In this document: positions 961 through 63,766 of the stretch, in pieces | How positions within the stretch are numbered: the stretch's first letter is position 1 | Layout of the letters: each line of letters starts with the position of its first letter | From: Octopus vulgaris | Lineage: Eukaryota | Reading direction: 5' to 3' | DNA length: 64,000 nucleotides | NCBI GenBank assembly: GCA_951406725.2 | Contig: OX597814.1 | Coordinates: 115,196,001-115,260,000, forward strand | Translations under genes and position numbers: made by a program | The notes under the pieces: generated by a model | The model's input: only the letters and a program-made list of their open reading frames with translations | The model's database searches: none | Told to the model about the DNA's origin: nothing

Positions 961-2424
961 CCATTTACCGGTGATGAGTCCCAGCCACATCAAACAAGTG
1001 CAAAAAGCAGCAGTGTGTGTGTGTATGTGTGTATGTGCGCGCGTGTGCGCGCGCATGTGTGTGTGTGTGCGTGTGCGTGTACACGTGCGCACGTGTGTAT
1101 TCATAACTTAGTAAGTCGTTAAGTAGAATTCGGAAACAAATAACCAAATAAAAGTAGTGTTTTGGTTCGATACGGTTGACTAAATAACAGTGAAATCAGT
1201 GCTCAAGCGTAACCACAGTCCAGTAACTCAAACCACTTAAATAATAACAGACTATGTACTATTTCACCTGCGACGGACCGGCGTCCCGTCCAGTGGGGAA
1301 CCTATACGCTAAGAAAACTGGGAAACCGGCCCTTATGAGCCAGGCATGGCTCGAGAAGAAACAAACATGTACTATTTATACCAACTGTATCTACTTGGAA
1401 TAATTTAGTAGTAGTTCGAGTAGCTGTAAACTTAAAACACTAAAATATGTGTTCAACGTCTGAAATACATGACTTCAATTCAACAGTAAATTTGCTTTAA
1501 ACAAAAACGAGAACTAACATTAAACAGTCTTATTTATCGTAATCGAAATCTTTACCAACTCGAATGTTAGCAATGGCAGTATATGTTTCACAGCATTCTC
1601 ATCTCCAGCTCCCATCTTGACTTAAACTAAATTAAGATTGCTGGATGGGGATTGCGTTAGTGTTTAGTTATATGAGTGAAAATGTATTATGTTTATATAA
1701 ACATTGATGTGTATCGAGCGATGTAAAATAATGACAGCGCACTAAGATATATTGAAAAGTAACCTTGAATGTAAGGCTTTATCAGATTCTACCGGGTAGA
1801 GTCGTAGATACATAAAACAAACAAATCAAATCTTGTTTACATTCATAAAGTGTATTCAAATATGGAGTAGACATTCAAAAGAACTTCAACAAAAACAAAA
1901 GAGAATAAGACTTGTTAGGCTCCTTGATTAATAATGTAAGGTTTCGGTTCTTGCCCAAGCTAAATCGTATGTAATCTCTCCCCTTCTGCTTTTTTTCTCT
2001 TATATGTTGACGTTGTATGATATTTTTGGTAAATATAATTGAGAAACTGTTTCGTTCTTACTGAGGAGTATAAGTATATTTATGTTCGTTTATTATTTAT
2101 TTCTTTGGAAGCTTAAATTTCGTATCACAATATATGAACGGAGAAGACAGCAAAAAGAGAAGGAAAAAAACGGAAACATGTTTCTAATATTTTAAGAATA
2201 AGACACACAAAACAAAATGTTATTAATTCTTTTTATATGAGCCTCTGCCATCAAAGGGGAAAAGATATTGTTGTATCTGCCAATATGTTTCAAATCAATG
2301 TCTACGAAAAATAGAAAAAGTTATGAACATCCAAAATCACATTTACTGTCTATCATATATCCGATGTACTTAACTAAGAAATACATATAGTTCCAACCCA
2401 GTCATTACCGTCAGTATAAAAAGG

Positions 2425-2458
<34 letters not shown>

Positions 2459-2989
2459 CATGCAACGAAAACTTGAATTAGTCCAACTTAACATGTAACC
2501 AACAGAGATCAATGTTCTGTTCTCTAAAGATTTACTTAATGTTTGTATCGATATTCTAATATTCTATGTTAGACTTTCGTACACATATTTTGTATATAAA
2601 CTTTGCCATACTTCTTTATGTTTAACGATCAATCTTTGAAATGCTTAATAAAAAAAAAACTAAGCTTATAACCAATGCATTCTCATTAATATCTGCAATA
2701 TAGTTGTAATTTAAAAGTTTAAAAGAAAAATTGAATTAAATCTTAGTATAATCGATTCTAAGAATCAATAAGTAGTGCGAGTTGAGGGTATATTCTAAAG
2801 GTAAAATTTGCATTTATTATTTAAATAATATGGAGTAAATATTAATTTCGTTTCGACCTTCTTTAGTGTCTGTGTCACTGGATTGTCGTTTAAAAAATTG
2901 TTCTTTTTAAGTAGACAAACTATAATCAATTATTTCTCTTGCATAGTGTTTCGATTAGGGAGCAAATATTTAAAAAAAAGTGGGAGTAG

Positions 2990-3200
2990 ATTGGTAGCAC
3001 AATTAGAAAAGACACCAAATGTGGCGAAAAGTGCTTTACAGTGGAAACCGGATGGATATAGAAGGAGAGGTAGGCCTAAGAACTCGTGGCGTAGATCAAC
3101 ACAAAAGGAACTAGAGAAAGGGGGACATTCATGGCAGAAGCGAAAAATTATGCGACATGGAATTCAACTATAAGTGACCTATACTCCGCGTTGGAGTGTT
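2990..3200 (+). mobile_element. RTE-clade LINE 3' fragment
   Basis: ORF 2883-3173 ends with ALQWKPDGYRRRGRPKNSWRRSTQKEL. Confidence 0.7.
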
Positions 3201-3609
3201 TTTGCTTTTATTTTCTTTCCATGCAGCTCAGTTTGTAAATGGGAAGAGCCAATATACATAAATAAAGTGCTGAACAATGTGTATGCGTTTGTCAATGTAA
3301 AAGACTACTGAAATTTTAAATACCAACTGGATATCAGTTCAAAATTGTTTCCCCGATATCTTTTTAGCATTTGTTAAGAATGCAATTACGATTAATAAAA
3401 AATCTTTAGTTTTCCTTTGCCTTTGCCCAGTGTGAGAATCGTATAAAAAATTTAACACTTTGTGTATTGTAGAAGTGTAACTAATTTATTGTACATAAAT
3501 TTTAACAAAATCTTGTGGGCCCCCAGCAGAGCCATATGGATCCTGGTTGAGAACCACTGTCTTATACTCTGTTCAGTTAGTTTTAAGTGACACACAACGT
3601 TCAATCTTC

Positions 3610-3665
<56 letters not shown>

Positions 3666-4183
3666 TTGCGTGTGTGTCTGTGATATGGTTAGCAGTTTGA
3701 GCGCTTGTAAAGTTCACTTCTTTATCACGAGGATCTGCTTTCAATCCTTGTGCGCGGCATTTTGAGGATATGCCTTTTGCTATAGTTTTGGGTAATCCCA
3801 AGAATTGTGACTGAAAGTGGAACGGATACTGTGAAGTTAACCTTAAAATGAACTGTACCAAATTATTGAAAAGACCATCCTTGTCACTTCCAGTTTCACA
3901 CAACTTATTCCACGTGTAAATATGTCTAATTTCTGAATTTCTCTCACATCGCGAATAATTATACACGCATCAAGTGATCATATTACTAATGATATATTAC
4001 TAATGATTGTTATTGATATGTTTGAAAGTTCAATAATCATCACTTTTCCTCTATCACACATTAAACGAACATGACACGAATTGAGATATTTCTGACGTCA
4101 TTTATGATTTTTATTCCAGTAAAAGTATATTCAGAACTTGTACATTGTTTCTGAAAATCAGGAATATATCTGCAATATATATT

Positions 4184-4763
4184 GATTTCAAATTTTGGCA
4201 CAAGGCCAGAAAGTTTGGGAATCGGGCTAAGTTGATTACAGCGACTCCAGTGCTGTGCTGGTACTTTGATGTCATTTGACAGTTCTAATCTATATTTTAC
4301 TACGGTCCGTTTAGAACTATTTTTTGCATACTGTAGGTATTACGGTAAATTAAATTGTAGTAGCTTCAGCTTAGCAGGATTAAACGCTCTATTTTGTTTG
4401 GGAATGCAGTATAGAATATTGTGAATATTCTATGAATTGTGAATATTGCGCCTTTTCTAAAGCAAGAAATTGTGAAATGCACACACACACACACACATGC
4501 ATACATATATCATCAGAAGAATTCTATCACTTCTTAACAACAGTTATAGTGTTGGTTTCAAATTTTGGCACAGTGACAAGATCGGTGGGAAGGATTTAGT
4601 TAATTGCATCGACCTCAGTTCTCTACTGGTACTTATTTCATCGACCCCGGAAGGATGACAGGTAAAGTGGACCTCGGCGGAATTTGAGCTCAGAGCTTAA
4701 GGACGGACGAAGAACCGCTAAGCATTTTGCCCGGCCTACTAACGATTCTACCAGCTCGCCGCC
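4184..4763 (-). mobile_element. SINE family 1 insertion with 20-bp target site duplication
   Basis: ATATATCTGCAATATATATT occurs at 4164-4183 and 4764-4783. A full copy at about 4550-4763 has head GGCGGCGAGCTGGTAGAATCGTTAG and B-box GAGCTCAAATTCC; an extra tail fragment lies at 4184-4270. Other family 1 copies: about 6870, 8110, 30520, 35805, 37822, 39903(-), 44350, 55771, 56012, 63945. Confidence 0.8.
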
Positions 4764-4835
4764 ATATATCTGCAATATATATTAGCAACAAAAGTCTCTG
4801 GTACGTCAACCCATTTCATAATATTTTTCGAAAGG

Positions 4836-5235
4836 CATGCGTATGTGGTTAAGAAGCTCACTTTGCAACCACGTGGTTTCGGGTTCAATCCCACTGCATG
4901 GTGCTTTCGGTAAGTGTCTTCTATTATAGCCTCGTGCCGACCAACGCCTTGTGAGTGGATCTGCGTAAGTTTGTGGAAGTCCGTCGCATATGTGTGTGTG
5001 TGCGTGTGTGTTTGTATTCGTGTCAGCGCACGCGCATATCTGTGTGCATGACATCCCCCACCAAGGCTTGATAACCGGTATTGGTTTGTTTTCATCCACG
5101 TAACTTAGTGGTTTTTCAATATATGTACCATACTTTAAAAAAGTAAGTACTAGGGTTGATTTGCTCGACTAAGTCCTTCATGGTGGTGCCCCAGCATGGG
5201 CGCAGTTCAATGACTATAACAAGTACAAGATAAAA
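4836..5235 (+). mobile_element. tRNA-derived SINE family 2 (CORE-like centre, CR1/L2-like tail)
   Basis: A-box-like TGTGGTTAAG, B-box GGTTCAATCCC, tail GGTGCCCCAGCATGG shared with the LINE 3' end at 50941-50965. Other copies on the minus strand at about 32190-32545, 32650-32875, 38390-38550 and 54740-55160. Confidence 0.75.
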
Positions 5236-7174
5236 TAAAATTATTCTTGGTTGTTTATTTTGATGGTTGAGTTTAACAATGTTTGCCTATCCTTGATACG
5301 GGTATTATTTTATTTTACTATCTTCTGTCTGATTAATTAAATGCATTATTGAAATTTTTTGTGCTCGTCATTGCAAAAATGTAATTCTGTCAAAATAAAA
5401 ACAATTTAATTTAAATGATTCGTTTGTATAAATATAAAACAATATGAAACAAAGCATTTCATTTTGACAGATTTTTTTTTTAATTTAGAAAACATTCAGC
5501 TAAGAAAATAATACATTATTATCAAGCATTTACTGATAATGAAAACAGGAAAGCTATTGTGTCCGACCAATTAATTAAAAATTCTTTAATTACATGGTTA
5601 ATGATTTGCTACTTTTCTAAGGACTTGAACAATATTATGTTGGAAGTAGGTGGAGGTATTTTCTTGTAGACTAGACACAGATAAGTTTGCACATTTCAAT
5701 TACTGCGTAAATATATTGATATATTTCGAGTTCTATGAATAATTAATAAATTATTCGCTTAAATAATAATTGGCGTATTACACCGTTAACACATGAAAAC
5801 ATTTCATTCTGGAGACTTCGAATATGATTTTAAATAAAAATTGAAAACGTAAAAAATAATTAACATTATAACTGGTCGCTTAAACAATTAAAATTTTGGC
5901 AATTCTTCTGGATTATGAATACAGTAAAACATACTCAGCATTACAAATGGTTTCTTAATTAAAACTGAGGTCATTTTTTTGGATTATGAATACGTTAAAA
6001 CTTAGTTAACAAGTATGTTAACCAATAGAAATTGAAACAATTCTTCTGGATCATAATTTTGCTGCAACTATCTTTATCAATAAATATTTGTTTCAGCTTC
6101 TTGAACAAAACTTTTCTTGGAATATTTTGATTTCGAAGCACCCAATGAATATCCAGATGAATATGTGTAAATGAAATTATAATTTCTTTGTAGAGCACAG
6201 ACCATATACAATAAATATAATAGTTTAGCCGTCACTTGCAAGCGAGAATGGCCAAATAGCTTGAACCATGCTTTTCGCTAATTTTGGTGTTGTGTCTATG
6301 CAGTCACGATCAGACATGGGCACTCTCTCGTCTCTTTCACTTTTAACACTGTGGACGTGACTTCTGAAAGGGGTAAGAGTACACCAGCAATTAGGCTGGA
6401 ACTTATTTTCAGCTGGGTAAACAAGAACAACGTGAAATGAAGTGCTTTGCTCAAAGACAACGCATCGCTCTGTCCAAAAATCGAATCTACTAACTTGTAA
6501 TTATGAACCCAATATCCTAACGCTTGAATTAGCGCCTACGCGAATAGGGAAATATAGTTGAGTTCTTCTTTGTAGTTTTATGTCAGTCTGAGAACAAATA
6601 AAATATCGATTTCTAAAATGGCATAAAGCTACCAAACAATCAATTAAATTCATCCTTGGACATCACTATTGCTCATCCTACTGAGTTCAGACTAAATAGA
6701 AGCTAAAGTCAAGACCGAATCCCAAGGCATTGTGCACAACGAACGTTTACGAATCTATCAATCTGTGAAACTAATACAATAATTACTAACTTCGAAATGA
6801 CTGAAGTAAAGTGAATTGTAATAATTTTATGAACCTGGGCACAGAACTTTTCTTAATTTGATTTGCTGAAGGCGACAAGCAGGCAGAATCGTTAGCGCGC
6901 TGAATAGAATGCTTAGCGACATTTCTTCTTGTTCTTTACATTCTAAGTTCAAATCCCGTCGGGGACAACTTTGTCTTTAATCCTTTTGAGGTCGATAAAA
7001 TAAGCACCGATCTAGTAATGGTGTTGATGTAACCGTCTAACGCCCTTCCGCTAAAAGTGCTGACCTTGTGCTAAAATTCAAAATATTTCTTTTTTTTGCT
7101 GGAATTTTTTTTGGCCAGAGAAGAGCAATCACCAGTATTTAATATTCTTCTTTGTTTTGTTTTATTTTTTGCAG

Positions 7175-7666
7175 GTGGTTGAACTACTTCTTGATAGATG
7201 CAACTCCACAACTATCCATGAAGCACTCTTGCAAGCTATTAGTGCTGGTCACGAAAATATAGCTGAAACCATTCTGAAACATCCCAAATATAAAGACATC
7301 AAAAGAGAAAATAAACGTTTTGGAGAAACAGACTACTTCTATAACCAGACAAGCGAAGATTCACCATTTTCCTCCGATATCACACCGCTTATTTTAGCAG
7401 CAGAACGTAACCAGTTTGAAATAGTTCAACTATTGTTATTAAGAGGTGACACTATTCAGAAACCGCATCACTATTACTGCGCATGTCAGGAATGTAATAA
7501 CAAGTTGCAGTTCGACCAATTGAGACTTGCCAAAACAAGGCTCAATGCATACCGGGGTTTAGCAAGCGGTGCATACATATCCTTATCAAGTAAGGATCCG
7601 GTTCTCACTGCATTTGAACTCGCTCAAGAATTAAGAGATGTAGCACGGGTCGAGAAATATTTCAAG
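7175..7666 (+). CDS. TRPC: TRPC-family (canonical TRP) cation channel, internal exon A: ankyrin repeats and TRP_2 Cys/His domain
   Basis: Acceptor ttttgcag|GTG, donor AAG|gtaaat, 492 nt, phase 0/0. Translation includes DITPLILAAERNQFEIVQLLL, KPHHYYCACQEC and RLNAYRGLAS..YISLSSKDPVLTAFEL..EL, typical TRPC N-terminal motifs. The symbol is family-level only; upstream exons lie outside the window or were not found. Confidence 0.96.
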
Positions 7667-7718
7667 GTAAATTATATATTATATTGCATTATTCAGTTCT
7701 ATATTTAAGAGACGAGGA

Positions 7719-7871
7719 ATTATGTACATTAAATTGACGGATATTTGTCCTCATCTTGTTTATTGTTAACACAACTTTTCGGCTGATATACCCTCCAGCC
7801 TTCATCAGGTGTCTTGGGGAAATTTTGAACATGGGTTCTCATTCCCAAGGTATTTTTCGATCTTGGTGTTG

Positions 7872-7919
<48 letters not shown>

Positions 7920-8070
7920 TCACTGCCTGGAGTCGAACTCGGAATCTTGGGGTTAGTATCCCGCGCTCTTAACCACTACACCATATGCCCGTGGGCATAT
8001 GGCATACGTTGTGTTAACAACAAACAAGTTGAAGACAAATATCCGTCAATTGTAAATAATGTAAATAATG
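7719..8070 (-). mobile_element. tRNA-headed, hammerhead-tailed SINE-like element as a head-to-head inverted dimer
   Basis: Minus strand: tRNA-like head 7990-7921 (A-box TGGTGTAGTGG, B-box GAGTTCGACTCC), (AAT)n linker, HHR 7812-7769. Central palindrome CCATATGCCC-gt-GGGCATATGG at 7981-8002. Outer arms about 7733-7776 and 8006-8051 are inverted repeats. Confidence 0.8.
7769..7812 (-). ncRNA. Minimal type I hammerhead ribozyme motif
   Basis: Minus strand ACAC-CTGATGA-A-GGCTG gagggtatat CAGCC-GAAA-AG-TT-GTGT: 4-bp stem I, 5-bp stem II, intact CUGAUGA and GAAA. The sister arm at 8006 reads ACGTTGTGT, implying an ancestral palindromic stem III (GAAACGTT). Confidence 0.85.
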
Positions 8071-8479
8071 TTTATTGTATTATTGTTTATTATTGTTGTA
8101 TTTGTTGATGAAGCGGCGACCTGATATAGTCGTTAGTGAACCGAACAAAATGCTTAATGGTATTTCTTCCGGCCCTTTACACCATAACTTCAAATTCTGC
8201 CGGGATCGATTTCACCTTTTATCCTTTTGGGGTTAATAAAATAGGTACCAGTTGAACACTGGGGTCGATGTAATCGATTTAATGACTCCTTCAAAAATTG
8301 CTGGCTTGGTGGCAAAATTTTAAACCATTATTTTGTTGTTGTTGACTAGTTTCAGGTTAAACATGACAAACAAGACATATGAACAACGAGACAGCATCTT
8401 CCGCTTTTTTAGGGTTTTACCTATCCAAGACAGCTTTAGCAAGACTTTTGGATATTTCATATTCAAACACTAAACAGTA

Positions 8480-8700
8480 TCCGTGGTCATTACATATCCA
8501 AAACTATAGATAATATTCTTGATCATTATAAACAATATCGTTGGATATTACATATGCCAGACTATCAATAATATCTGAACATTACAAACAATATTGTTGG
8601 ATCTTACATATCCAAAACTATAGATATCTTCGAACATTACAAACAATATCGTTGGATATTACATATGCCAGACTACGTTAATATACTTAAGCATAATATA
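8480..8700. repeat. Minisatellite, ~55-bp unit, about 4 copies, alternating A/B variants
   Basis: Recurrent TTACATATCCAAAACTATAGA and TTACATATGCCAGACTA variants, each followed by CATTACAAACAATATCGTTGGAT. Confidence 0.8.
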
Positions 8701-9157
8701 TCTAAGCCTGCATCAGCGAAGCTTCCCTTGTCTCTTCAAAACAGTAGGGCGTGATTTAAGAGAGATTTATCAGCGTCTGCTAACAAGTCGAGCAATAAAC
8801 AGGGGCACCGGTTTTGGTTTATAGCTGTATACCATGCGGGTGATATTTCGTAAGAGCCGTTTGATTTAGTAAACATTTCTGATAAAAGTGTGCTAAGTTA
8901 ACCATATACTATAGAAAAGCTTAACTTAGACTCTTTTAAAACGTGACCTGCCTAGCAAAGCTGCGGAAGGTTGATGAGTTCGACTTAAGTGTACTCGGCA
9001 AGAGGCAAGTATTGTTCATGAACGCTATAGAATTGTATCCCGAATGGAATTTTAGACACTTTTACAAGTTCTCTCTGTTTACTTCTCTCTCTCCCTCTCT
9101 CTCCATGTAGGTATGAGTGTATTTATATGTGTGGGGTGTTGCTTTAGTTTACACACT

Positions 9158-9210
<53 letters not shown>

Positions 9211-9324
9211 TCACATATATGTTTGTGTATATATATATATATATATGTGCGTGTGTCTGTGTATAGGAAAATATGTAACACGCACACAATTTTTTTTACA
9301 TATATATATTTTCACATATATGTT

Positions 9325-9355
<31 letters not shown>

Positions 9356-9413
9356 GTGCGTGTGTCTGTGTATAGGAAAATATGTAACACGCACTCAATT
9401 TTTTTTACATATA

Positions 9414-9445
<32 letters not shown>

Positions 9446-9978
9446 TATATATATACACACAGACACATATACATTTGCTATGAGTGAAATAAACCTTTTC
9501 CCTCTTCATTCTATTTCCTCAATTTATATATAGATTATATATATATAAAAAAAAGATTTCTTTAAAATGATAAACGGATAAATCAAATTTTCTTTACGAT
9601 AATCGTATTTGATTTCGTCGCTATCAGACTGTGGCACACTTCTTTATTCTCTCAAACTGCAAATAAAATAATTATATCAAATATAGAACTCCTTCATAAA
9701 AGTATCCATTCAAATAATAGCATGCGCTATATATGCTTGTGTGAGAAAATGTGTATGTCTGAGTGTATATTTATATATGTGTGTGTGTGTGGAGAGTGAG
9801 AGAGAGAAAGAGAACATCTGAAGTGAAAAATATAGGGTGATATCTTTAAACTATATAAACGTGACCTCTGCATGACAGATCACAAAATCGCTAGAGGTCT
9901 GAAGTTGATGGGTGTGTGTGTACGTGTGCGCGTGGATGTTTCTGTGTTTGTATATGTATGCATGAATGTGTGCCTATA

Positions 9979-10057
<79 letters not shown>

Positions 10058-10705
10058 GGGAGAGAGCTAGACAAACAGATAGATACATATTTGCATATAT
10101 TATATATATATATATACATATACGTATATACATACATATATATAAATATATGTATATACATATGCACACATATATACAAACACATATATATACATATATA
10201 TATATATATATAAATATATATATACGTGTATATATACATATATTTTATATATACATGTATATATTATATACATACACATTTACATATATATATATATATG
10301 CATATGTATTATATATATATATGCATATATATATTATATATATACATACATATTATGTATATACATACATACACATACATATTATGTATATACATACACA
10401 TATACATACATACACATACATATATATACATATATGCATACATATATATTGATATATATTATATACATACACATATGCATATTATATATATACATACATA
10501 TATACATACATATACATACATATATATACATATATATACATATATATATATACATACATATATACATATACACATATATACATACATACATATACACATA
10601 TATACATATATAAAGGGAAAGTTTACGAAAGTAAACAAATGACGAAGGCAAGTGGAGTACAAACAAACAAATGTATTAGTATAGCGCTCAGGAATAGAAA
10701 AAGTA

Positions 10706-10739
10706 TTTTACGTTTCGAGCCAACGCTCTTCGACAGAAA
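10706..10739 (-). ncRNA. Minimal type I hammerhead motif (A6U variant) in an element spanning about 10612-11440
   Basis: Minus strand TTT-CTGTCGA-A-GAGC gttg GCTC-GAAA-CG-TA-AAA. Homologous to 43425-43605, 66-265 and 35590-35790. Confidence 0.7.
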
Positions 10740-11549
10740 GATACACAGAAAAAACAAGGAGAGAAACAAGGAAAGAAAAAAATGCGTGTAGGAGCTAACA
10801 ATCTATCATGGCGTCCTGACTTCGGACAGTTGTCAAACGCGAGAGGGACAGTAGGGGGAATAACAGGGTCAAGTGACTTCCAATTAGAAGGTACCCCCAA
10901 AACAAAGGTGCGTGTGTGAGTAAGAGAGTATGTGTGTGCGTGTGAAAGAGGGCTGGTGGTCTGGATGTGTGTGATTATGTATGCGTGGGTGTGGAGATGT
11001 GGGGATGGGTGTGTGGGTGGTATATTGTGATGATATATGTGTATGTATGTGTAGGTGTAAAGATCTGGTGATGTAATGTGTAATGTTGTATGGTGTAGTG
11101 TAGTGTGGTATGATGTTGTGGGGGAGATGGGGGCGAGAGTGGGGAAAGCACAGGTGGGGTGTGGGTTCGGCAGGGGGGTGGGATAGAGTGGGGGTTGTGG
11201 GTAAGTAGAGGGTGAGGTTAGAGATGAGGTATGTGGGAGAGGGGTATGAGATATGGGTGAGGTGTGTAGAGATGGGTGGGGGAGAGTGGGGGAGGGGTGG
11301 GAAGGATAGGGAAGGTGGAGTAGGGGTGGGTGGGTTTATGGGGAGGGGAAGGTGGGTATATGAGGTGAGAGAGGAGGAGAGAAGAGAGGGGGACGGGGAA
11401 TGGGGGAGATAGGGGGAGAGAAGAGAGGGGAGGGGGAATACATATATATACATACATACACATATATATATATATACATACATACATATATATATATATA
11501 CATACATACATATATATATATAGACATACATACATATATATATATAGAC

Positions 11550-11588
<39 letters not shown>

Positions 11589-11941
11589 CTTATATATACA
11601 TACACATATATACATACATACTTATATATACATACACATATATATATATAGACATACACACACATATATATAGACATAAACATATATATACATACATACT
11701 TATATATACATACACATATATATATAAAGACATACACACATATATATATAGACATAAACATATATATACATACATACACATATATATACATACATACATA
11801 TACATACATATACATATATATATATATATACATACACACATACACATACATACATATATATATACACACACACATATATATACACACACACATATATATA
11901 CACACACATATATATACACACATATATATACATATATATAT

Positions 11942-12027
<86 letters not shown>

Positions 12028-12033
<6 letters not shown>

Positions 12034-13708
12034 CTCACAGAAACGCATCTTGAACCCGATATAGGTGATGCAGAAATACACATGCCGCAATATGCAGTCA
12101 TACGCACAGATAGAAAAGGGAGGAGCCATGGTGGAGTTGCAATGTACACCCGAGATGACCTCACGCCCCAGGTCCTGTTGTCATATTCAAACTCAGTGTG
12201 TGAAACTCAAATTGTACACATAAGACAACTGAATATCGTCATATGCACTACATATCGCCCACCAGATGCCCCAAATCACTCAGGCATGTTTGACGACTGC
12301 CTAACAAAAATAGGAGAAGTCCTCACCAACCTTGAACAACACAACAGTGTATTCTTCATGGGTGACTTTAACCTCCCCAATGTGGTATGGCCTGGGGGGG
12401 GGGGCAGATGCTCCCAGGGATAACACACCATCAGCAGGCACAGGCAGAGTCCCTGCTCCATCTCACAAATGCCTCTTTCATGGAGCAAATAGTTCTGCAA
12501 CCAACAAGGGCAGCTAATATACTGGATCTCTGCTTCACAAACAATATGGATATTATCCATAATGTTAATGTGATGCCGACAAAGATCTCGGATCACAACA
12601 TAATAGAGCTGTCTATGTATGGAACAAAAGCCCCCGTAGACACACAGCCTATACGAAGCATCCACCTTCTCTCCAACTTAAACTTTCATAAAGCAAGCTG
12701 GAAGTTGATTGAGAAAGAGATCCTCAAACAGGATTGGCCTAAATGTCTCTCCACACCGGACATAAACATGAAACACAAACACTTCATGTCCATAATACAA
12801 GCCATATGTGACAAATATGTCCCAGTGTGCAGGGCCAGCACATACAAAAACAAAAACAGGATCCCTAGAGAAAGGAAAATTCTTATGAGACGACGGACAA
12901 GGATTGCTAACCGCCTGAGCAAGCACACCAAAAGTGGTAAGAAGTCTCGGCTCGAGAGAATGCTAATGGAAACTGAGAAAAGTCTGCATCAGTCCCATGA
13001 AAAGGAGAGAGCAGATAAAGAAGCTTGGGTAATAGAAAATATAAAATCAAACCCTAAAGCTTTCTTTAAGTTTGCCAAAGAGACAGCCACAGTGCACCAG
13101 AGAATAGGACCTCTCTTCCAAAAGATGGCTCTCTCACAGGAAATCCCACGAGGATAAGTGAAATACTGAACGAACAATTCCAAAGTGTGTTCACTACACC
13201 TTTAGGACACAGGCAAGTAAACAACCCAGAAGAATTCTTTGCCACTTTACCTGCGGCCAAAGAGGCAAAAATTGAGTACATCAACATCGAAGATGATGAT
13301 ATCACACTAGCCATAGATGAGATTGACACAAACTCAGCTGCTGGACCTGATGGATTCCCAGCGATCCTTCTCAAATCGTGCAAACGAGCCCTTGCAAAAC
13401 CGCTACAGCTTCTTTTTCAGAGCTTTCTTGTAAGTGGTAAGCTCCCAGTCAAATTGAAAGAGGGGGCAATATGCCCTATCCATACGGGAGGTAGCAGAGC
13501 AGATGCTAAAAATTATAGGCCTATCTCTCTGACCTCACACATCAGCTAAGTCATGGAACGAATAGTCCATAAGAAACTAATCATGTTCCTTTAAGAAAAT
13601 GACTTGCTGTTTGACACCCAGCATGGATTTCGACCAGGTAGAAGCTGCCTAACACAGCTCCTGCAACAGTCATAGGTGTTGAAACAGCTACTGAATGGCT
13701 CAAATGTG
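12028..13708 (+). mobile_element. CR1/L2-group LINE copy B, 5' part (AP endonuclease to start of RT), frameshifted
   Basis: ALTETHL, YRPP, GDFNLP, LDLCFT, SDH endonuclease motifs, plus GPDG and NYRPISLTS. Highly similar to 48072-49732. Confidence 0.93.
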
Positions 13709-13760
13709 TATATATGTATGTATATATATATGTATGTATGTATATATATATGTATGTATG

Positions 13761-13791
<31 letters not shown>

Positions 13792-13856
13792 ATATATACA
13801 TATGTATGTATATATATACATATGTATGTATATATATACATATGTATGTATGTATG

Positions 13857-13921
<65 letters not shown>

Positions 13922-13962
13922 GTATGTATTTATATATATATATATATATATACATATGTATG

Positions 13963-13993
<31 letters not shown>

Positions 13994-14012
13994 ATATATA
14001 TACATATGTATG

Positions 14013-14043
<31 letters not shown>

Positions 14044-14286
14044 ATATATATACATATGTATGTATATATATATATATATATATATACAAAATTAGAGAAT
14101 GGAGAAACATACTTAAATCAATAAAACATCAACTATCCGATGATACTCAATCCATACTTTAATACACCATTACATAGGAGTAAAGGCAATATATAAAATG
14201 AAATGAGATATACAGTAATAGTAAAAGTAAAAAGATAAAGAGATATAAGTAAAAAATTACAAATACAATATGCAAATAAATCAAAA

Positions 14287-14394
14287 CTGACAGCTGTTTC
14301 GGCAGTGAGGACAGTCATACCTCATTTAACCTATAAGCCATAAAGGCAGGTATAAATGAGGCATTAACAAAGATGCCCCACGGCCTCTTCAGAG
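14287..14394 (-). ncRNA. Type I hammerhead motif with enlarged stem II (left arm of the palindrome)
   Basis: Reverse complement of 17784-17891. Confidence 0.75.
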
Positions 14395-17300
14395 AATTAA
14401 ATTAAATTTGTTATAATAGTGAAAAATATTATATAATCATATACATATAAATATAAAAATATAAAAAAGTAAAATATAAAAACTTATACATCATAATGCT
14501 ACACTTGTATAATATAATACACATTTGTACAAAAAGGAAGGTAACCAGAACAAAATAAAACAAAATATATAACAGTGTATATATAATATTAATAAGTACC
14601 GATATCATACATATTTAGCTAATAGTTTTTTTTATAAAAAAAAAGGGCTAACACATATGGAGATGAAAAATAATAATAATTAAATCCGTGGTACAGTTCA
14701 TAAAATTCTAAAGCTATAAAAGTTAATAAAAATTACTATTAATAATAATTATAATAATAATAATAATAATAGTAATAATAATAAAAAATAATAAAAATAG
14801 ATACAGTTAAGTTATCACCAAGTCCATCCTTCCAAGATCGAAATAACTATGAGTTAAGAAATGCTGACCACTAGGTAAAGAAAATTTAGATTAATTCGAT
14901 TGGCTATTGGTTTGAAATTTAAATCACAAAAGAAAATTATACGGTTGGTTAGTCAGGGAACGCCAATATTCACACACGCATCTACAGATCAATCGCACAT
15001 ACACACATAGTTATATGTATATACATACACTTGTACATATACATAATCATAAGCAACAACTAACACTTAGATAAACAAATAGGGAAGCAACCATGCTAAC
15101 ACTAAGTCCTTCAAAATTATAACTGAGCCTCAATAACAAAAAAAGAACCATCCATGCATTCTATAAAATATTTAATTAAGATATAAATGTATTTTTAAAT
15201 ATCAGTATGTTACTAATTCAGATAATTATTTCATGGGTAACTTAAAATTTATAACACCGGTTTGTTGCAGAGTAAACATACGGTTGTTAGGTTTATCGTA
15301 AGTTTGTTATGATTTAAAGTACGCTAAATTATAAAATATAAAATATAAAATATATTAATTTAGATATTATAAATAAGTCACTTATTAACTTAATAAATAT
15401 AGTGCCAAAATATACCAGTTTAGGCAATAAAAAATAGAGGGGGAAGTATTAATGTAAACGCTTATGAGAACATCACAGAAATTTTAAATAAATTTTATAT
15501 TATAAAGACTTAAGATGAAAAGAGATAAAATAAATAAAAAGGAATAAATACGAAGGAATAAATACGGTTATACACATAATTATAAGTACAAACTAGTATA
15601 TATGTATTCATATATTATTAAAATTAAATAAAAATAAATGATAGATATGTATGTATAAAACTACACCAGTATAAGTAAATAAGTAAAGAATAAATAGGTA
15701 ACAAATTAAATGACTTGATATGTATGTAAACATCCACACTTAAATAGGCAAATAAATAAATAAATAGAAGACTAGATGCAAATATTGATAATATTACAAT
15801 AAAATGGGAAATAAATAAAAATAAATAAAGTGAATATATATATTTTATATTGTTGAAAGTAAATATGTATGGAAGGATAGTTTAAAGTACAGATCCAGAG
15901 GACTATAGATATAAACTAAATATATGAGGCTGGTAACAATTATAAAGCAAAATGCATGTAAATGAGAAAATGAAAAAAATGAAAAGGTTTATCAGTGAAT
16001 AGCATAAGATACAAATTAAGGTGAGTACAAAAAGACCAAATATATAATAAAAACCTTCCAAATCAGCACATACAAAAAACCCATAATCTCAACCTGGGTT
16101 TTTTGTATGTGCTGATTTGGAAGGTTTTTATTATATATTTGGTCTTTTTGTACTCACCTTAATTTGTATCTTATGCTATTCACTGATAAACCTTTTTCAT
16201 TTTTTTCATTTTCTCATTTACATGCATTTTGCTTTATAATTGTTACCAGCCTCATATATTTAGTTTATATCTATAGTCCTCTGGATCTGTACTTTAAACT
16301 ATCCTTCCATACATATTTACTTTCAACAATATAAAATATATATATTCACTTTATTTATTTTTATTTATTTCCCATTTTATTGTAATATTATCAATATTTG
16401 CATCTAGTCTTCTATTTATTTATTTATTTGCCTATTTAAGTGTGGATGTTTACATACATATCAAGTCATTTAATTTGTTACCTATTTATTCTTTACTTAT
16501 TTACTTATACTGGTGTAGTTTTATACATACATATCTATCATTTATTTTTATTTAATTTTAATAATATATGAATACATATATACTAGTTTGTACTTATAAT
16601 TATGTGTATAACCGTATTTATTCCTTCGTATTTATTCCTTTTTATTTATTTTATCTCTTTTCATCTTAAGTCTTTATAATATAAAATTTATTTAAAATTT
16701 CTGTGATGTTCTCATAAGCGTTTACATTAATACTTCCCCCTCTATTTTTTATTGCCTAAACTGGTATATTTTGGCACTATATTTATTAAGTTAATAAGTG
16801 ACTTATTTATAATATCTAAATTAATATATTTTATATTTTATATTTTATAATTTAGCGTACTTTAAATCATAACAAACTTACGATAAACCTAACAACCGTA
16901 TGTTTACTCTGCAACAAACCGGTGTTATAAATTTTAAGTTACCCATGAAATAATTATCTGAATTAGTAACATACTGATATTTAAAAATACATTTATATCT
17001 TAATTAAATATTTTATAGAATGCATGGATGGTTCTTTTTTTGTTATTGAGGCTCAGTTATAATTTTGAAGGACTTAGTGTTAGCATGGTTGCTTCCCTAT
17101 TTGTTTATCTAAGTGTTAGTTGTTGCTTATGATTATGTATATGTACAAGTGTATGTATATACATATAACTATGTGTGTATGTGCGATTGATCTGTAGATG
17201 CGTGTGTGAATATTGGCGTTCCCTGACTAACCAACCGTATAATTTTCTTTTGTGATTTAAATTTCAAACCAATAGCCAATCGAATTAATCTAAATTTTCT

Positions 17301-17783
17301 TTACCTAGTGGTCAGCATTTCTTAACTCATAGTTATTTCGATCTTGGAAGGATGGACTTGGTGATAACTTAACTGTATCTATTTTTATTATTTTTTATTA
17401 TTATTACTATTATTATTATTATTATTATAATTATTATTAATAGTAATTTTTATTAACTTTTATAGCTTTAGAATTTTATGAACTGTACCACGGATTTAAT
17501 TATTATTATTTTTCATCTCCATATGTGTTAGCCCTTTTTTTTATAAAAAAAACTATTAGCTAAATATGTATGATATCGGTACTTATTAATATTATATATA
17601 CACTGTTATATATTTTGTTTTATTTTGTTCTGGTTACCTTCCTTTTTGTACAAATGTGTATTATATTATACAAGTGTAGCATTATGATGTATAAGTTTTT
17701 ATATTTTACTTTTTTATATTTTTATATTTATATGTATATGATTATATAATATTTTTCACTATTATAACAAATTTAATTTAATT

Positions 17784-17891
17784 CTCTGAAGAGGCCGTGG
17801 GGCATCTTTGTTAATGCCTCATTTATACCTGCCTTTATGGCTTATAGGTTAAATGAGATATGACTGTCCTCACTGCCGAAACAGCTGTCAG
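17784..17891 (+). ncRNA. Type I hammerhead motif with enlarged stem II (right arm of the palindrome)
   Basis: CT-CTGAAGA(17786-92)-GGCCGTGGGG...CCTCACTGCC-GAAA(17878-81)-CAGCTG-TC-AG. Core intact, palindromic stem III CAGCTG, GUC cleavage triplet. Internal hairpin CTCATTTA.ACCT/AGGT.TAAATGAG lies inside stem II. Stem I is short and imperfect. Confidence 0.78.
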
Positions 17892-18267
17892 TTTTGATTT
17901 ATTTGCATATTATATTTGTAATTTTTTACTTATATCTCTTTATCTTTTTACTTTTACTATTACTGTATATCTCATTTCATTTTATATATTGCCTTTACTC
18001 CTATGTAATGGTGTATTAAAGTATGGATTGAGTATCATCGGATAGTTGATGTTTTATTGATTTAAGTATGTTTCTCCATTCTCTAATTTTGTATTATTAA
18101 TTTACGGTAATATTATTACCCTTACCCATTTAATACAATAGATGAACTGATTGCTTGACAATTTCTAACATCTATGTATTAATTTTGTTGGGTACCTATC
18201 TAGCAGTATATTGGATATATATTATCCCATGGTGGGTTGAATTTTCAACCCCTATCTCATTTTATAA

Positions 18268-18301
<34 letters not shown>

Positions 18302-18349
18302 GGCCACAGCTCGTGAGCTGAAACTAGAATCAATCAATCATATCATATG

Positions 18350-18420
<71 letters not shown>

Positions 18421-18424
18421 GGGG

Positions 18425-19470
<1,046 letters not shown>

Positions 19471-19481
19471 TATATATTTTG

Positions 19482-19871: not shown

Positions 19872-21104
19872 ATCTCGACTTTGCAAAAGCCTTTGAAAAG
19901 GTCGACCACGGTATGATCTGTCACAAACTGCATGGTCTCGGCAAAGGCGGAAAACTTGGAGAGTGGCTGCACAACTTCCTAAAAGACAGAAAACAGGCAG
20001 TTGTGAGCAATGGAGCCACCTCCAAGGAAACACAAATAACAAGCGGTGTCCCACAGGGCACTGTCTTGGGGTCACTGATATTCATAGTGGCCCTTTCAGA
20101 CATGCCTTCAGTTGCTACGATGACCACCCTTGCTGGCTATGCAGATGATACAAAAGTCTCCCACGCATTACAAAACCCTGAAAATATTGCGCATCTGCAA
20201 CATGAGTTGGATACAATATACAGGTGGGCTGAGGACAACAACATGCAGTTTAATGCAGGTAAGTTCCAGGCCCTTGCACACAAGGGTAAACGACGTAAAG
20301 ACTGGATACACTAGCCCAGGAAGAATTACAATCCCTGAGTTAAAATCAGTGCGTGACCTGGGCATTCACATGAGCAATGATGCATCTTTCTAAGTGCATA
20401 TTGCTAATCTGGTGATAAAATGCAGACGGCTAGCTGGATGGATTCTCCGAACTTTCAGAACGAGAGAGAAAGAGACACTGATGGTCCTATGGAAAACATT
20501 CGTCCTTAGCCGCTTGGACTACTGTGGTCACCACACAATATAAGACTAACAGCAGAACTCGAAGCAATTCAGAGAAGCTACACAAAGAAAATCGTCTCAA
20601 TACAAAATATCAGCTACTGGGAAAGACTGAAGGTATTAAACCTCTTCTCCCTAGAGCGGAGGCGGGAGAGATATGCGGTGATATACATCTGGAAAATCCT
20701 GGAGGGTCTTGTCCCAAACTTTGGCATTCAAAGTTACCCCAACCGCAGAACGGGGCGCCACTGCATGGTGCCAAATATTCCAACATCACCATCAAAATAC
20801 AGGTCCAGATACTGCAACAGCTTACGTTTCAGAGGACCACAGCTCTTTAACATCCTCCCTAAATGCCTGAGAGATTTACATGGTGTGGATGTGGGTTTCT
20901 TTAAAACTAAACTGGATTTCTTCTTGTCGGGAGTCCCAGATGAACCTACCTCACGACAAGAGACGCAGATGCGGGCAGGATCTTCGAACTCCCTTGTTGA
21001 TGAAGTGCCACGTATCAGAGGTGGATTCACAAATTAGTGTAGCTCATTCAGCGGTGGTGCCCCAGCATGGCCGCGGCCTTCGAGCTAAAGCATTTTTTTA
21101 AGGA
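19870..21104 (+). mobile_element. CR1/L2-group LINE copy B, 3' part (RT and 3' UTR)
   Basis: [18 protein letters not shown] motifs. Resumes within a few bases of where 12028-13708 stops relative to copy A; contains stops and small deletions. Confidence 0.93.
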
Positions 21105-45872: not shown

Positions 45873-47497
45873 CAGTTGCGGCCGAAATGTTCAGAACGGC
45901 ATTGTTTTCGTCAGAAAAGTAGGTATAAGTTTTTATCAAAGTTGTTTTACATTCTATAATTTTCACAGACAATAAATACGATATTAATTTTTATTGTCTG
46001 CGATTTTTGTGTAATTTGAGAGGATAATACAAAAGTTATGGATGATTTAGTGATTTACTGCAAAACCAATGCCGGCCAAAATGATCAGAACGGTTGAAAA
46101 AATAACAAAATAATCAAAAATGACAGAGAATACTGGAATTATTTAATATTTAGTGTGAAGCCCTGTAGCTTCAATCACACTCTGACATCTTCGACTGCAT
46201 GAGGAAATTAAAATTTCAATTTCTTGCTGGGTGATCTTATTCCATTCTTCCTGAAGGGCATTCCATAATTGCTCAGTTGTTTTAGGATTTCTGGCTTTCG
46301 AACGTTCTCCTAGAATATTCTACACATTTTCAATAGGATTGAGATCTGGGTTTTGAGCTGGCCAATCCATACAATAACCTTTTCAGCCTTGAGGAAGTTC
46401 ATGACCACCTTAGCCTTGTGACATGGGGCATCGTCCTGCATGAATATGGGTGGTCGCTTAGTTGAATTTCTCAGCACAGGCAAGACATGATCTTTTACAA
46501 GTTGTTTATAAACTCCTGCATTTAACTTTCCATGTAATCGCACCAAAGGGCCCACATCATCTCCAGATATCATTCCCCAAACCATGACACTTCCTCCACT
46601 GAATTTAACACTAGTCTTAAGGCATTTAGGCAACAATTTTTCACCTACATTTCTACGAACGTACCTTTTCCCATCTGAACCAAATAACATAAACTTAGAT
46701 TCATCACTGAAATGCACCGTTTGCCATTTTTCTTGAGACCACAACACATGTTCGGTTGCAAATGTAAGACGACACTTTTTATTCTTGGAGCTGATCAGTG
46801 GCTTCACTGCAGGTGCTCTTGCTTGTAGGTCACGTTCAACTAAACGACGAGACACAATTTTTCGAGATAAAGTTTTCTTCAATACAATGTTCATTTTCCG
46901 AGAAACAGCAGCAGTTTTAAATCTGTCCTTTTTAACCAACTTTACCATAGCACGATCTTCTCTCTTGGTCGTTTTTCTTGGCCTACCTGTAAACTTTCTT
47001 GCTTCACACGAACCACAATCATCGTAGACCTTAAGAATACCGTGTACAACACTTTTTGACTTGTTAACAATCTTTGCAATAGATCCAATACTTAAATTAG
47101 CCTTCCTTCGAAGCTTAATAATCTGCTGAGGAATTGGTAACGGAGTAAGGGGCATTATATTAACAAAGTACACTGCCAATATTCTTACTAATGTTTAGTA
47201 AACGAACCGTCACGTAAAAAAATTCAAAACATTAGAGTTCGCCGGTTAAATATACTAAAACATGGAGTAAAAGGAACCGTTCTGATCATTTTGGCCGCCA
47301 TGGGTTTGGCAGTAAATCACTAAATCATCCATAACTTTTGTACTATCCTCTCAAATTACACCAAACTTTCAGGCAACAACAAGTAATATCGTATTTATTG
47401 TCTGTGAAAATTATAGAATATAAAACAACTTTGTTAAAAAATTATATCTACTTTTCTGACGAAAACAATGCCGTTCTGATCATTTTTGCCGCAACTG
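45873..47497 (-). mobile_element. Tc1-family DNA transposon, IR/DR type, full length but inactive
   Basis: TA|CAGTTGCGGC ... GCCGCAACTG|TA. ~220-bp TIRs, each with outer and inner direct repeats (GGCCRAAATGWTCAGAACGG). Confidence 0.95.
46143..47179 (-). pseudogene. Tc1 DD34E transposase, frameshifted
   Basis: GRPRKTT, FSDESKF, FMQDDAPCH. After a frameshift near 46370 it reads MDWPAQNPDLNPIENV* (34 residues between D and E) and continues to ...GLHTKY* at 46143. Confidence 0.92.
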
Positions 47498-47986: not shown

Positions 47987-48012
47987 TATATATACATATA
48001 CATATATATATA

Positions 48013-51003
48013 CATTCAGGAAAATCTCATTCCTGAGAGACCTTGTGACATGCAATCAAGCTATATGCATAGCACTCACAGAAACGCATCTTGAACCCGA
48101 TATAGGTGATGCAGAAATACACATGCCGCAATATGCAGTCATACGCACAGATAGAAAAGGGAGGAGCCATGGTGGAGTTGCAATGTACATCCAAGATGAC
48201 CTCACGCCCCAGGTCCTGTTGTCATATTCAAACTCAGTGTGTGAAACTCAAATTGTACACATAAGACAACTGAATATCGTCATATGCACTACATATCGCC
48301 CACCAGATGCCCCAAATCACTCAGGCATGTTTGAAGACTGCCTAACAAAAATAGGAGAAGTCCTCACCAACCTTGAACAACACAACAGTGTATTCTTCAT
48401 GGGTGACTTTAACCTCCCCAATGTGGAATGGCCTGGGGGGCAGATGCTCCCAGGGATGACACACCATCAGCAGGCACAGGCAGAGTCCCTGCTCCATCTC
48501 ACAAATGCCTCTTTCATGGAGCAAATAGTTCTGCAACCAACAAGGGCAGATAATATACTGGATCTCTGCTTCACAAACAATATGGATATTATCCATAATG
48601 TTAATGTGATGCCGACAATGATCTCGGATCACAACATAATAGAGCTGTCTATGTATGGAACAAAAGCCCCCGTAGACACACAGCCTATACGAAGCATCCA
48701 CCTTCTCTCCAACTTAAACTTTCATAAAGCAAACTGGAAGTTGATTGAGAAAGAGACCCTCAAACAGGATTGGCCTAAATGTCTCTCCACACCGGACTTA
48801 AACATGAAACACAAACACTTCATGTCCATAATACAAGCCATATGTGACAAATATGTCCCAGTGTGCAGGGCCAGCACACACAAAAACAAAAACAGGATCC
48901 CTAGAGAAAGGAAGATTCTTATGAGACGACGGACAAGGATTGCGAACCGCCTGAGCAAGCACACCAAAAGTGGTGAGAAGTCTCGGCTCGAGAGAATTCT
49001 AATGGAAATTGAGAAAAGTCTGCATCAGTCCCATGAAAAGGAGAGAGCAGATAAAGAAGCTTGGGTAATAGAAAATATAAAATCAAACTCTAAAGCTTTC
49101 TTTAAGTTTGCCAAAGAGACAGCCGCAGTGCACCAGAGAATAGGATCTCTCTTCCAAAAAGATGGCTCTCTCACAGGAAATCCCACGAGCATAAGTGAAA
49201 TACTGAACGAACGATTCCAAAGTGTGTTCACTACACCTCTAGGACACAGGCAAGTAAACAACCCAGATGAATTCTTTGCCACTTTACCTGCGGCCAAAGA
49301 GGCAACAATTGAGTACATCAACATCGAAGATGATGATTTCACACTAGCCATAGATGAGATTGACACAAACTCAGCTGCTGGACCTGGTGGATTCCCAGCG
49401 ATCCTTCTCAAATCGTGCAAACGAGCCCTTGCAAAACCGCTACAGCTTCTTTTTCAGAGCTTTCTTGCAAGTCAAAATGCTCCCAGTCAAATTCAAAGAG
49501 GGCGTAATATGCCCTATCCATAAGATGCTAAAAATTATAGGCCTATCTCTCTGACCTCACACATCAGCAAAATCATGGAACGAATAGTCCATAAGAAACT
49601 AATCATGTTCCTTGAAGAAAATGACTTGCTGTCTGACACCCAGCATGGATTTCGACCAGGTAGAAGCTGCCTAACACAGCTCCTGCAACACTATGACTGG
49701 GTGTTGAAACAGCTACCAAATGGCTCAAATGTGGATGTAATATATCTCGACTTTGCAAAAGCCTTTGATAAGGTCGACCATGGTATGATCTGTCACAAAC
49801 TGCGTGGTCTCGGCATAGGCGGAAAACTTGGAGAGTGGCTGCACAACTTCCTAAAAGACAGAAAACAGGCAGTTGTGAGCAATGGAGCCACCTCCAAGGA
49901 AACACAAATAACAAGCGGTGTCCCACAGGGCACTGTCATGGGCCCACTGATGTTCATAGTGGCCCTTTCAGACATGCCTTCAGTTGCTACGATGACCACC
50001 CTTGCTAGCTATGCAGATGACACAAAAGTCTCCCACGCAATACAAAACCCTGAAAATATTGCGCATCTGCAACAGGAGTTGGACACAATATACAGGTGGG
50101 ATGAGGACAACAACATGCAGTTTAATGCAGGTAGGTTCCAGGCCCTGCGCTACTGGCACACAAAGGTAAACGACATGCAGACTGGATACACTGGCCCAGG
50201 AAGAATTGCAATCCCTGAGTTAAAATCAGTGCGTGACCTGGGCATTGACATGAGCAATGATGCATCTTTCCAAGTGCATATTGCTAATCTGGTGATAAAA
50301 TGCAGACGGCTAGTTGGATGGATTCTCCGAACTTTCAGAACAAGAGAGAAGGAGACACTGATGGTCCTATGGAAAACATTCGTCCTCAGCCGCTTGGACT
50401 ACTGCTCCCAACTATGGTCACCAAACAATATAAATCTAACAGCAGAACTCGAAGCAATTCACAGAAGCTACACAAAGAAAATCGTCTCAATGCAAAATAT
50501 CAGCTACTGGGAAAGACTGAAGGTATTAAACCTCTTCTCCCTAGAGCGGAGGCGGGAGAGATATGCGGTGATATACATCTGGAAAATCCTGGAGGGTCTT
50601 GTCCCAAACTTTGGCATTCAAAGTTACCCCAACCGCAGAACGGGGCGCCACTGCATGGTGCCAAGGGTTCCAACATCACCATCAAAATACAGGTCCAGAT
50701 ACTGCAACAGCTTGGGTTTCAGAGGACCACAGCTCTTTAACATCCTCCCTAAATGCCTGAGAGACTTACATGGTGTGGATGTGGGTTTCTTTAAAACTAA
50801 ACTGGATCTCTTCTTGTCGGGAGTCCCAGATGAACCTACCTCACGACAAGAGACGCAGATGCGGGCAGGATCTTCGAACTCCCTTGTTGATCAAGTGCCA
50901 CGTATCAGAGGCGGATTCACAAATTAGTGTAGCTCATTCAGCGGTGGTGCCCCAGCATGGCCGCGGCCTTCGGGCTAAAACATTTTTAAGGATTTAAGGA
51001 TTT
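48013..51003 (+). mobile_element. CR1/L2-group LINE copy A: near-complete ORF2 (APE + RT) with lesions, 3' UTR and short tandem tail
   Basis: ORFs 48045-49523 (endonuclease) and 49575-50927 ([24 protein letters not shown]). Frameshift near 49472 and a small deletion near 49522 relative to copy B. Tail TTTAAGGATTTAAGGATTTA. Confidence 0.95.
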
Positions 51004-63067: not shown

Positions 63068-63118
<51 letters not shown>

Positions 63119-63766
63119 TATGAATTGGTAATATCTGTAAGTTGATGATTGAAATGAATTTGCTCCTCCAATTTCTATTTTACATTCAATATTTTACCTT
63201 CCAATATTTTACCTTTGCCCATCTAATACAATAAATGAATTAATTGCATTGCAATTATAAGCATTTATATATTTGGCATTTGGGTGCTTCACCAGCAGTA
63301 TATTGGATAACTGATATCCCATAGTGGGTTACACTCATAACCCCTATCTCACTTTGTACTTTTAAGTTAATTTTTTGAGGAATTGCATTGCTAATTGCTT
63401 ATGTACATGAAGTATCTATTCAATACTTTAAGTGTTGTTAGTATAAGTGAGTGCATTCAAGTATAGTACATCAATTCCTCAGGATGAATATTGCTGGTAA
63501 AATGGAAAAGATTTGGATCAATTCACCAATGAAAGATATACCCATACCTACCAGGGACCACTATACTAAGGAGCTTATATATATATATATATATATATAA
63601 ACAAGTCAAATTGCGATAAAATAAAATTAATTATTATCGCTGGTGAAACTAGCTCAGGCCATATATTATTCATATATCAGTACATTAAAGGCGAAATATG
63701 AGCTAGAAACACAGAAGCTAGATAAATTTAGTGAAATGAAAATAAAAACATTTACTAACTCGGTTC

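Follow-up and report, generated by a model that had tools for sequence, protein, structure and literature searches.

What produces a near-perfect 4-kb palindrome in an octopus genome, and is the palindrome itself the mobile unit? A block of this kind spans 14084–18270 of a 64,000-nucleotide stretch of Octopus vulgaris DNA from contig OX597814.1 (the window, to which all positions refer), with a hammerhead ribozyme motif in each arm. An earlier reading of the sequence, made without database searches (the original prediction), had taken it for a young Penelope-like element (PLE) or retrozyme-like element inserted as a head-to-head inverted duplicate, or else for an assembly artefact. We consider it likely that the block is a single recent PLE insertion, probably of the Hydra clade, in which two 5′-truncated non-coding ends of the element lie head to head in a (TA)n repeat.

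The left arm (14084–16083, sense on the minus strand) is a tail-less, 5′-truncated copy of the element’s non-coding end; the right arm (16095–18094, sense on the plus strand) is a second 5′-truncated copy, made up of a 1.7-kb T-rich non-coding body, the hammerhead and then 205 nt. Between them lie 11 nt (16084–16094, minus strand) that are the element’s own sequence and represent extra 5′ bases of the left copy. Over 2002 aligned columns the arms differed by two substitutions (14266/17912 and 14320/17858) and two single-base indels in A/T runs, and the alignment extended to 14080/18097, which confirms the near-identical 2.0-kb arms and 11-nt separation that had been described. The arms also proved as AT-rich and non-coding as claimed (GC 23–24%): the longest stop-to-stop frame wholly within the right arm was 72 amino acids, among 21 frames of at least 35 amino acids, and the palindrome copy codes for nothing. 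Comparison of the arm with itself revealed no internal repeat.

On the right side only, the sequence continues into a tail of 176 nt (18095–18270, plus strand) that ends just past two small predicted hairpins. This is the extension of about 180 bp that the original prediction had likened to 63120–63360, and the likeness held, with 18022–18266 matching 63119–63358 at 71.8% identity (E 4e-26). The block is bounded by (TA)n, as had also been noted: on the left by a (TA/TG)n microsatellite (13705–14088), the likely target, expanded at the break point of a host long interspersed nuclear element (LINE), and on the right by a (TA)15 target repeat (18270–18299). A few bases, TAT, are common to the left microsatellite and the end of the left copy.

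Other copies of the family show what the centre of the palindrome is. Between 62% and 78% of the arm’s sampled words were found in 20 of the 24 listed sequencing runs (7 studies), no run with the sequence being on record as RNA, although X1 may be one. Four runs, comprising three contig runs (X1, X3 and X5) and one raw-read run (X23), were aligned to 16040–18275. In all three contig runs, contigs leaving the reference at 16095–16097 passed, by eye, through the spacer complement into common further sequence, 112 letters of it in X1 and 207 in X5; upstream of the centre, 30 letters of the longer copies were read. The spacer is therefore the element’s own sequence and the centre is the meeting point of two 5′-truncated copies, which are offset by 12 nt and have one base in common (16095, from by-eye comparison of contig ends with the reverse complement). 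The palindrome is thus not a fixed element, because other copies run on past its centre, and the notion of a 4-kb palindromic unit is not supported.

Membership in a dispersed family, proposed at the outset, was upheld by these contigs and by an older copy at 63110–63576 (plus strand), which lies between two (TA)n tracts and is 72% identical to the arm end and tail before it runs into the start of a reading frame. The family’s 5′ and 3′ ends are variable. At the right end, an X5 contig continued past 18271 with sequence resembling 63365–63395 (one run), and an X1 contig ended at 18263 in (TA)n. Summed contig depth in X5, which is no copy number, was 1276–12698 over the hammerhead and downstream sequence against 4–594 over the body outside one microsatellite-like peak; such an excess at the hammerhead and downstream over most of the body is as expected if many copies are shorter. 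The two small hairpins near the tail end are predicted in both copies (18213–18255 and 63305–63347) and form a candidate start signal for reverse transcriptase (RT), weak alone, with one compensatory pair; over the tail as a whole, 2 of 37 predicted pairs compensate between the two copies, and z is only −1.6 and −1.8.

Both arms contain CUGAAGA, 85 nt, GAAA, CAGCUG and UC in that order. In the right motif (17786–17889, plus strand) the core at 17786–17792 is followed by stem II (17793–17877), GAAA (17878–17881) and an 8-nt palindromic stem III (17881–17888), with a predicted cut after C17889; the left motif (14392–14289, minus strand) carries the better-pairing stem II allele, with a predicted folding energy of −38.2 kcal/mol versus −32.7 kcal/mol on the right. 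The type I core is complete (CUGANGA, GAAA and UH, with G10.1–C11.1 and A15.1–U16.1), and stem I consists of two contiguous pairs only. A loose hammerhead match arose in 1 of 2000 Markov resamples of the arm, and stem II folded with z = −5.0 (right) and −6.5 (left), none of 200 shuffles being equally good. The hammerhead with an enlarged stem II that had been claimed for each arm therefore stands, but its branching is not supported: the predicted stem II is a rod of 31–33 pairs, bulged but unbranched, and for a side hairpin as the alternative the pair probability is at most 0.001.

The active fold of the monomer is predicted to lie 6.5 kcal/mol above the minimum, with the CUG of the core mispaired with stem III. 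A dimer-ready fold is predicted at 4.3 kcal/mol above the minimum per copy, against −11.1 for the 8-bp dimer duplex, so that the duplex would pay for opening the misfold. Because of the predicted mispairing, the motif would be expected to cut only as a dimer through its 8-bp stem III, or with the help of a protein. The hammerhead copies compared were the two arms, with one difference between them, and among the variant sites listed from the aligned runs none falls in 17786–17889.

Rfam gave no hammerhead among the 150 listed of 417 window matches, nor within 17700–18000. A search pattern for the same hammerhead found none in viral contigs and none in metagenome contigs; a looser pattern found at least 119 metagenome loci (54 of 64 parts scanned), none of which had a BLAST match to the arm or to the 63-kb copy. 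Among them, 43 loci (L002, L012, L087 and 40 more; ERZ1740055, ERZ1740069) form a repeat family of type I hammerheads that is unrelated to the octopus element. Its stem I of 6 bp encloses one of two forms: a short canonical motif (L087), or a variant whose cores are about 86 nt apart, apparently through internal duplication.

How far, then, do these features resemble known PLEs? The octopus family has a sense-strand type I hammerhead near its 3′ end, in the pseudo-long terminal repeat (pseudo-LTR), and at the palindrome an inverted 5′-truncated copy adjoins the 5′ end, with a one-sided tail; inverted 5′-truncated copies and one-sided tails make up the usual PLE unit (PMC8557442, PMC3846280). 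Insertion in (TA)n was seen at the palindrome, the 63-kb copy and one X1 contig end, and is not exclusive to the Hydra clade, as other clades do likewise. The Penelope-like nature and head-to-head inverted duplication of the original prediction are thus borne out by the inverted truncated arms, the hammerheads, the tail and the (TA)n ends. The block is like the typical unit (Arkhipova et al. 2013, PMC3846280; Frangieh et al. 2024, PMC11167929) in its head-to-head arrangement, tail on one side, AT-rich target and two slightly offset 5′ ends, whereas its arms measure 2.0 kb rather than about 0.2 kb, its tail 176 nt rather than about 30–40 nt, and no coding part is retained. In Pen1_Av, a captured non-coding spacer of 0.9–1.5 kb before the 3′ pseudo-LTR is comparable to the octopus body (PMC3846280).

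Several likenesses are to PLEs of the Hydra clade (Craig et al. 2021, PMC8557442): the (TA)n target, which nearly all Hydra families prefer (PMC8557442 supplement); a sense type I hammerhead near the 3′ end; a stem III of ACAG/CUGU type, present in 4 of the 26 published Hydra hammerhead rows (same supplement); and a putative N-terminal protein motif in the 63-kb copy. An inverted truncated copy of kilobase size is known there too, Penelope-13_HM carrying one of 966 nt that is likewise 5′-truncated (PMC8557442).

The protein motif is a 31-codon frame start at 63484–63576 (plus strand), with a probable start methionine at 63502, that resembles a Hydra-clade N-terminus and is ended by (TA)n. Compared by eye without gaps, the peptide shared 11 of 19 residues with the N-terminus of Hydra-1_Ajap, the copy ending before the RWK motif, and its second methionine (63502) was in register with the start of Hydra-1_Obim. 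The peptide is also the start of an Octopus sinensis gene model (21 of 31 residues identical). That MEGF10-like model opens, within residues 1–40, with the element’s frame start, as a mis-predicted or borrowed first exon. A follow-up search with the model returned only host EGF/phosphatase proteins, Atlas matches were uninformative, and a tblastx comparison of the arm with all other parts of the window gave low-complexity noise and the 63-kb copy only.

The octopus hammerhead differs from its Hydra counterparts. Its CUGANGA–GAAA span is 85 nt, against 12–26 nt in the 26 Hydra rows and a maximum of about 53 in the other rows of the table of PMC8557442 (both by eye); its stem III is loopless, against a loop of 1–3 nt in the Hydra rows; its stem I has 2 bp; and the predicted cut site lies about 500 nt from the start codon. 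Because hammerhead and N-terminus both differ by eye from those of Hydra-1_Obim of Octopus bimaculoides, the family would be a different one. The motif is like the Penelope hammerhead of Drosophila virilis (Cervera and de la Pena 2014, PMC4209133) in being type I with a palindromic helix III and a 2-bp helix I; an irregular helix II and an expected function as dimers of low activity are further likenesses. Helix II measures 6–8 bp in the PLE hammerheads of that paper, against about 31–33 predicted pairs in the octopus arm. In Schistosoma, opposite-strand hammerhead pairs lie 100–700 bp apart (PMC4209133).

A single insertion of this type could have been built as follows. The element’s GIY-YIG nuclease would nick both (TA)n strands, and RT would start two cDNAs at separate RNA sites, equivalent to 18094 and 18270, the gap between them becoming the tail; a lizard PLE in vitro had both strands nicked and extended, with a tail corresponding to the stretch between two RT start sites (PMC11167929). 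The left cDNA would stop after about 2 kb, fold back over the 11-nt loop with a 1-base foothold and be copied back, and the folded left strand would then pair with the right cDNA, the source of the tail and the right junction. On the plus strand the order is left cDNA, 11-nt loop and its own complement, and this orientation of the spacer fits fold-back of the left cDNA, not of the right. The two substitutions both lie within the outermost 237 nt, for which the chance probability is about 1.4% (seen post hoc and from two events only); this placement fits a second template for that part. The same product could come from two full cDNAs that were joined at the centre, yet both must then stop within 12 nt.

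The arm divergence, 2 in 2002, corresponds to about 0.14 million years (range 0.02–0.5) under an octopus calibration of JC (Jukes–Cantor) 0.09 = 25 million years (PMC13282606), an estimate that conversion between the arms or polishing may bias; the young age put forward earlier is supported. In such an insertion the hammerheads would travel as passengers and mark the pseudo-LTR. At this locus they are predicted to be inactive: the two motifs are on opposite strands, and in a host transcript reading through the block the sense motif would be locked into a duplex of 2 kb.

Weighing against a recent Hydra-clade insertion are points of several kinds. The non-coding body of at least 1.7 kb is ill fitting for Hydra elements of 1080–3045 bp (PMC8557442 supplement), and so long a body and an 85-nt stem II depart from the generally short elements (<3 kb) with a compact hammerhead that typify that clade. 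Stem III, ACAGCUGU, occurs also in the unrelated 43-locus family among the at least 119 metagenome loci, so it is not diagnostic of Hydra elements. No RT or nuclease gene of the palindrome’s family was recovered. The protein link consists of 31 residues compared by eye in a different, 72%-identical copy, and protein searches with this short query found no PLE protein; one gave no candidate, and another returned three matches, namely two unrelated long repeat-rich proteins and one octopus gene-model N-terminus. The tail, at 176 nt, exceeds the usual 30–40 nt and stops short of the frame start. In X23, 5 of the 2727 aligned raw reads had 95% identity or more, and this individual thus seems to be without the subfamily altogether. 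The head-to-head centre junction was found among the listed contig pieces or joints of no run; as a junction contig would be short and straight on the reference, and the longest pieces alone were listed, that absence is uninformative. We class the palindrome’s family as Hydra-like rather than as a proven member of the clade.

Could the doubling have occurred after insertion? A single PLE copy might have inserted and been duplicated at its site later on, by a fold-back event of DNA repair or replication in which reverse transcription played no part. Such repair likewise leaves near-identical arms and a short central loop, and the region is rich in unstable microsatellites and contains an inverted LINE piece at 19056–19458. 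We nevertheless regard it as improbable: nothing but element sequence is duplicated, the duplicated part terminates in (TA)n with a short common motif, and PLE insertion regularly yields head-to-head copies with a tail on one side (PMC8557442, PMC3846280).

An assembly artefact, in which a fold-back (chimeric) long read doubled one inserted copy, is unlikely. The arms are 99.8% identical, two of their four differences lie in A/T runs, and the centre junction, missing from the listed pieces and joints, is also left uncovered by the X23 reads. A fold-back read, however, would mirror the tail and flank, whereas here the left arm gives way to (TA)n at the point where the right arm continues. Moreover, the host LINE is collinear across the block and is picked up again beyond it at the corresponding position (49746 after 49728 in the intact copy), two of the differences are plain substitutions, and arm sequence occurs in most of the listed runs (20/24, 7 studies). 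The one-sided flank, the LINE collinearity and the substitutions between the arms make the artefact unlikely. Of the two options first offered, a recent insertion or an artefact, the former is thus supported and the latter weakened by the flanks.

The block shares with animal non-LTR retrozymes (Cervera and de la Pena 2020, PMC7229834; bioRxiv 10.64898/2026.07.22.740005) its non-coding nature, a type I hammerhead and a relation to PLEs; those retrozymes are direct tandem repeats of 170–400 nt, whereas the octopus block pairs two truncated 2-kb copies in inverted orientation, with no internal repeat in the arm, and the retrozyme-like label is accordingly not supported. That the block is a self-contained non-autonomous palindromic element or retrozyme, its two outward hammerheads excising a unit-length RNA, is highly improbable: the intactness of both cores and a stem II much more stable than its shuffled versions speak for it, but motifs on opposite strands cannot act on one RNA, the copies continuing past 16095 largely refute it, and there is no tandem unit of the retrozyme kind.

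The geometry of a PLE insertion is textbook for these elements, so no new biology is needed for the palindrome itself; known PLE behaviour explains it, and the family is apparently an undescribed, Hydra-like one of octopus with an oversized hammerhead stem II. A literature search, with most subscription papers outside its reach, found no PLE hammerhead with so long a stem II; Repbase, Dfam and the Octopus vulgaris repeat library lay outside the search and may catalogue the family, and published descriptors favour short helices. That a young family has an intact core together with an 85-nt stem II suggests that PLE ribozymes are undercounted when search descriptors assume short helices.

More tentatively, and with real doubt, we raise the possibility that undescribed Hydra-like PLEs are spreading in octopus, with stem II as a conserved, independent 85-nt rod domain, a multi-kilobase non-coding body and an insertion that records its own mechanism. 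If so, the rod could serve as a landing site for the element’s protein, or as a dock for dimers that permits cutting; Rfam and short-helix descriptors would miss such ribozymes. The insertion would then represent a fold-back cDNA finished on a second cDNA, to which the spacer orientation, the one-sided tail and the substitutions in the outer 237 nt are pointers. The octopus hammerhead offers a simple construct for asking what role PLE hammerheads play, and the 2-kb inverted insertion, almost free of mutations, provides a clean record for deciding whether PLE inversions and tails arise by fold-back or by twin priming.

The palindrome lies downstream of a host exon at 7175–7666 (plus strand) that encodes TRP_2 and ankyrin domains of a TRPC-type channel, and would thus lie in an intron of that gene; later exon-like frames near 53.3 and 56.5 kb are TRP-like by eye, without a Pfam match. 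If real and transcribed with its TRPC-type host gene, the palindrome would yield a 2-kb duplex RNA, a likely substrate for A-to-I editing. Such editing is extensive in cephalopods.

The interrupted host LINE has its 5′ part at 12031–13703 (plus strand; 95.9% identical to the copy at 48072–49728) and its 3′ part at 19874–21092 (plus strand; 95.0% to 49746–50982), resuming 18 bases past the left break in the coordinates of the intact copy. At 48012–50927 the LINE frame is nearly intact, with endonuclease and RT domains and one break near 49520. To the right of the palindrome, 18300–19471 holds nested insertions: a LINE 3′ tip, a piece resembling a short interspersed nuclear element, and an inverted LINE fragment that joins distant LINE parts (49319–49527 and 50691–50884 of the intact copy). 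A Tc1/mariner-type transposase frame lies at 46310–47194 (minus strand).

Two further PLE-type sequences in the window belong to other families. At 57569–58447 lies a decayed Penelope-like fragment of a family distinct from that of the palindrome, in which an RT-thumb-like frame (Atlas matches of 0.97–0.98 to PF26215 clusters) precedes a second frame that by eye is Cys-rich, GIY-YIG-like and reminiscent of Neptune. A small PLE-type stub at 7711–8070 has inverted ends of 57–62 nt that are 85% alike, a part that is tRNA-like by eye, and a decayed short-stem hammerhead near 7780–7811 (minus strand; z = 0.3); its match to the arm is of (AAT)n type.

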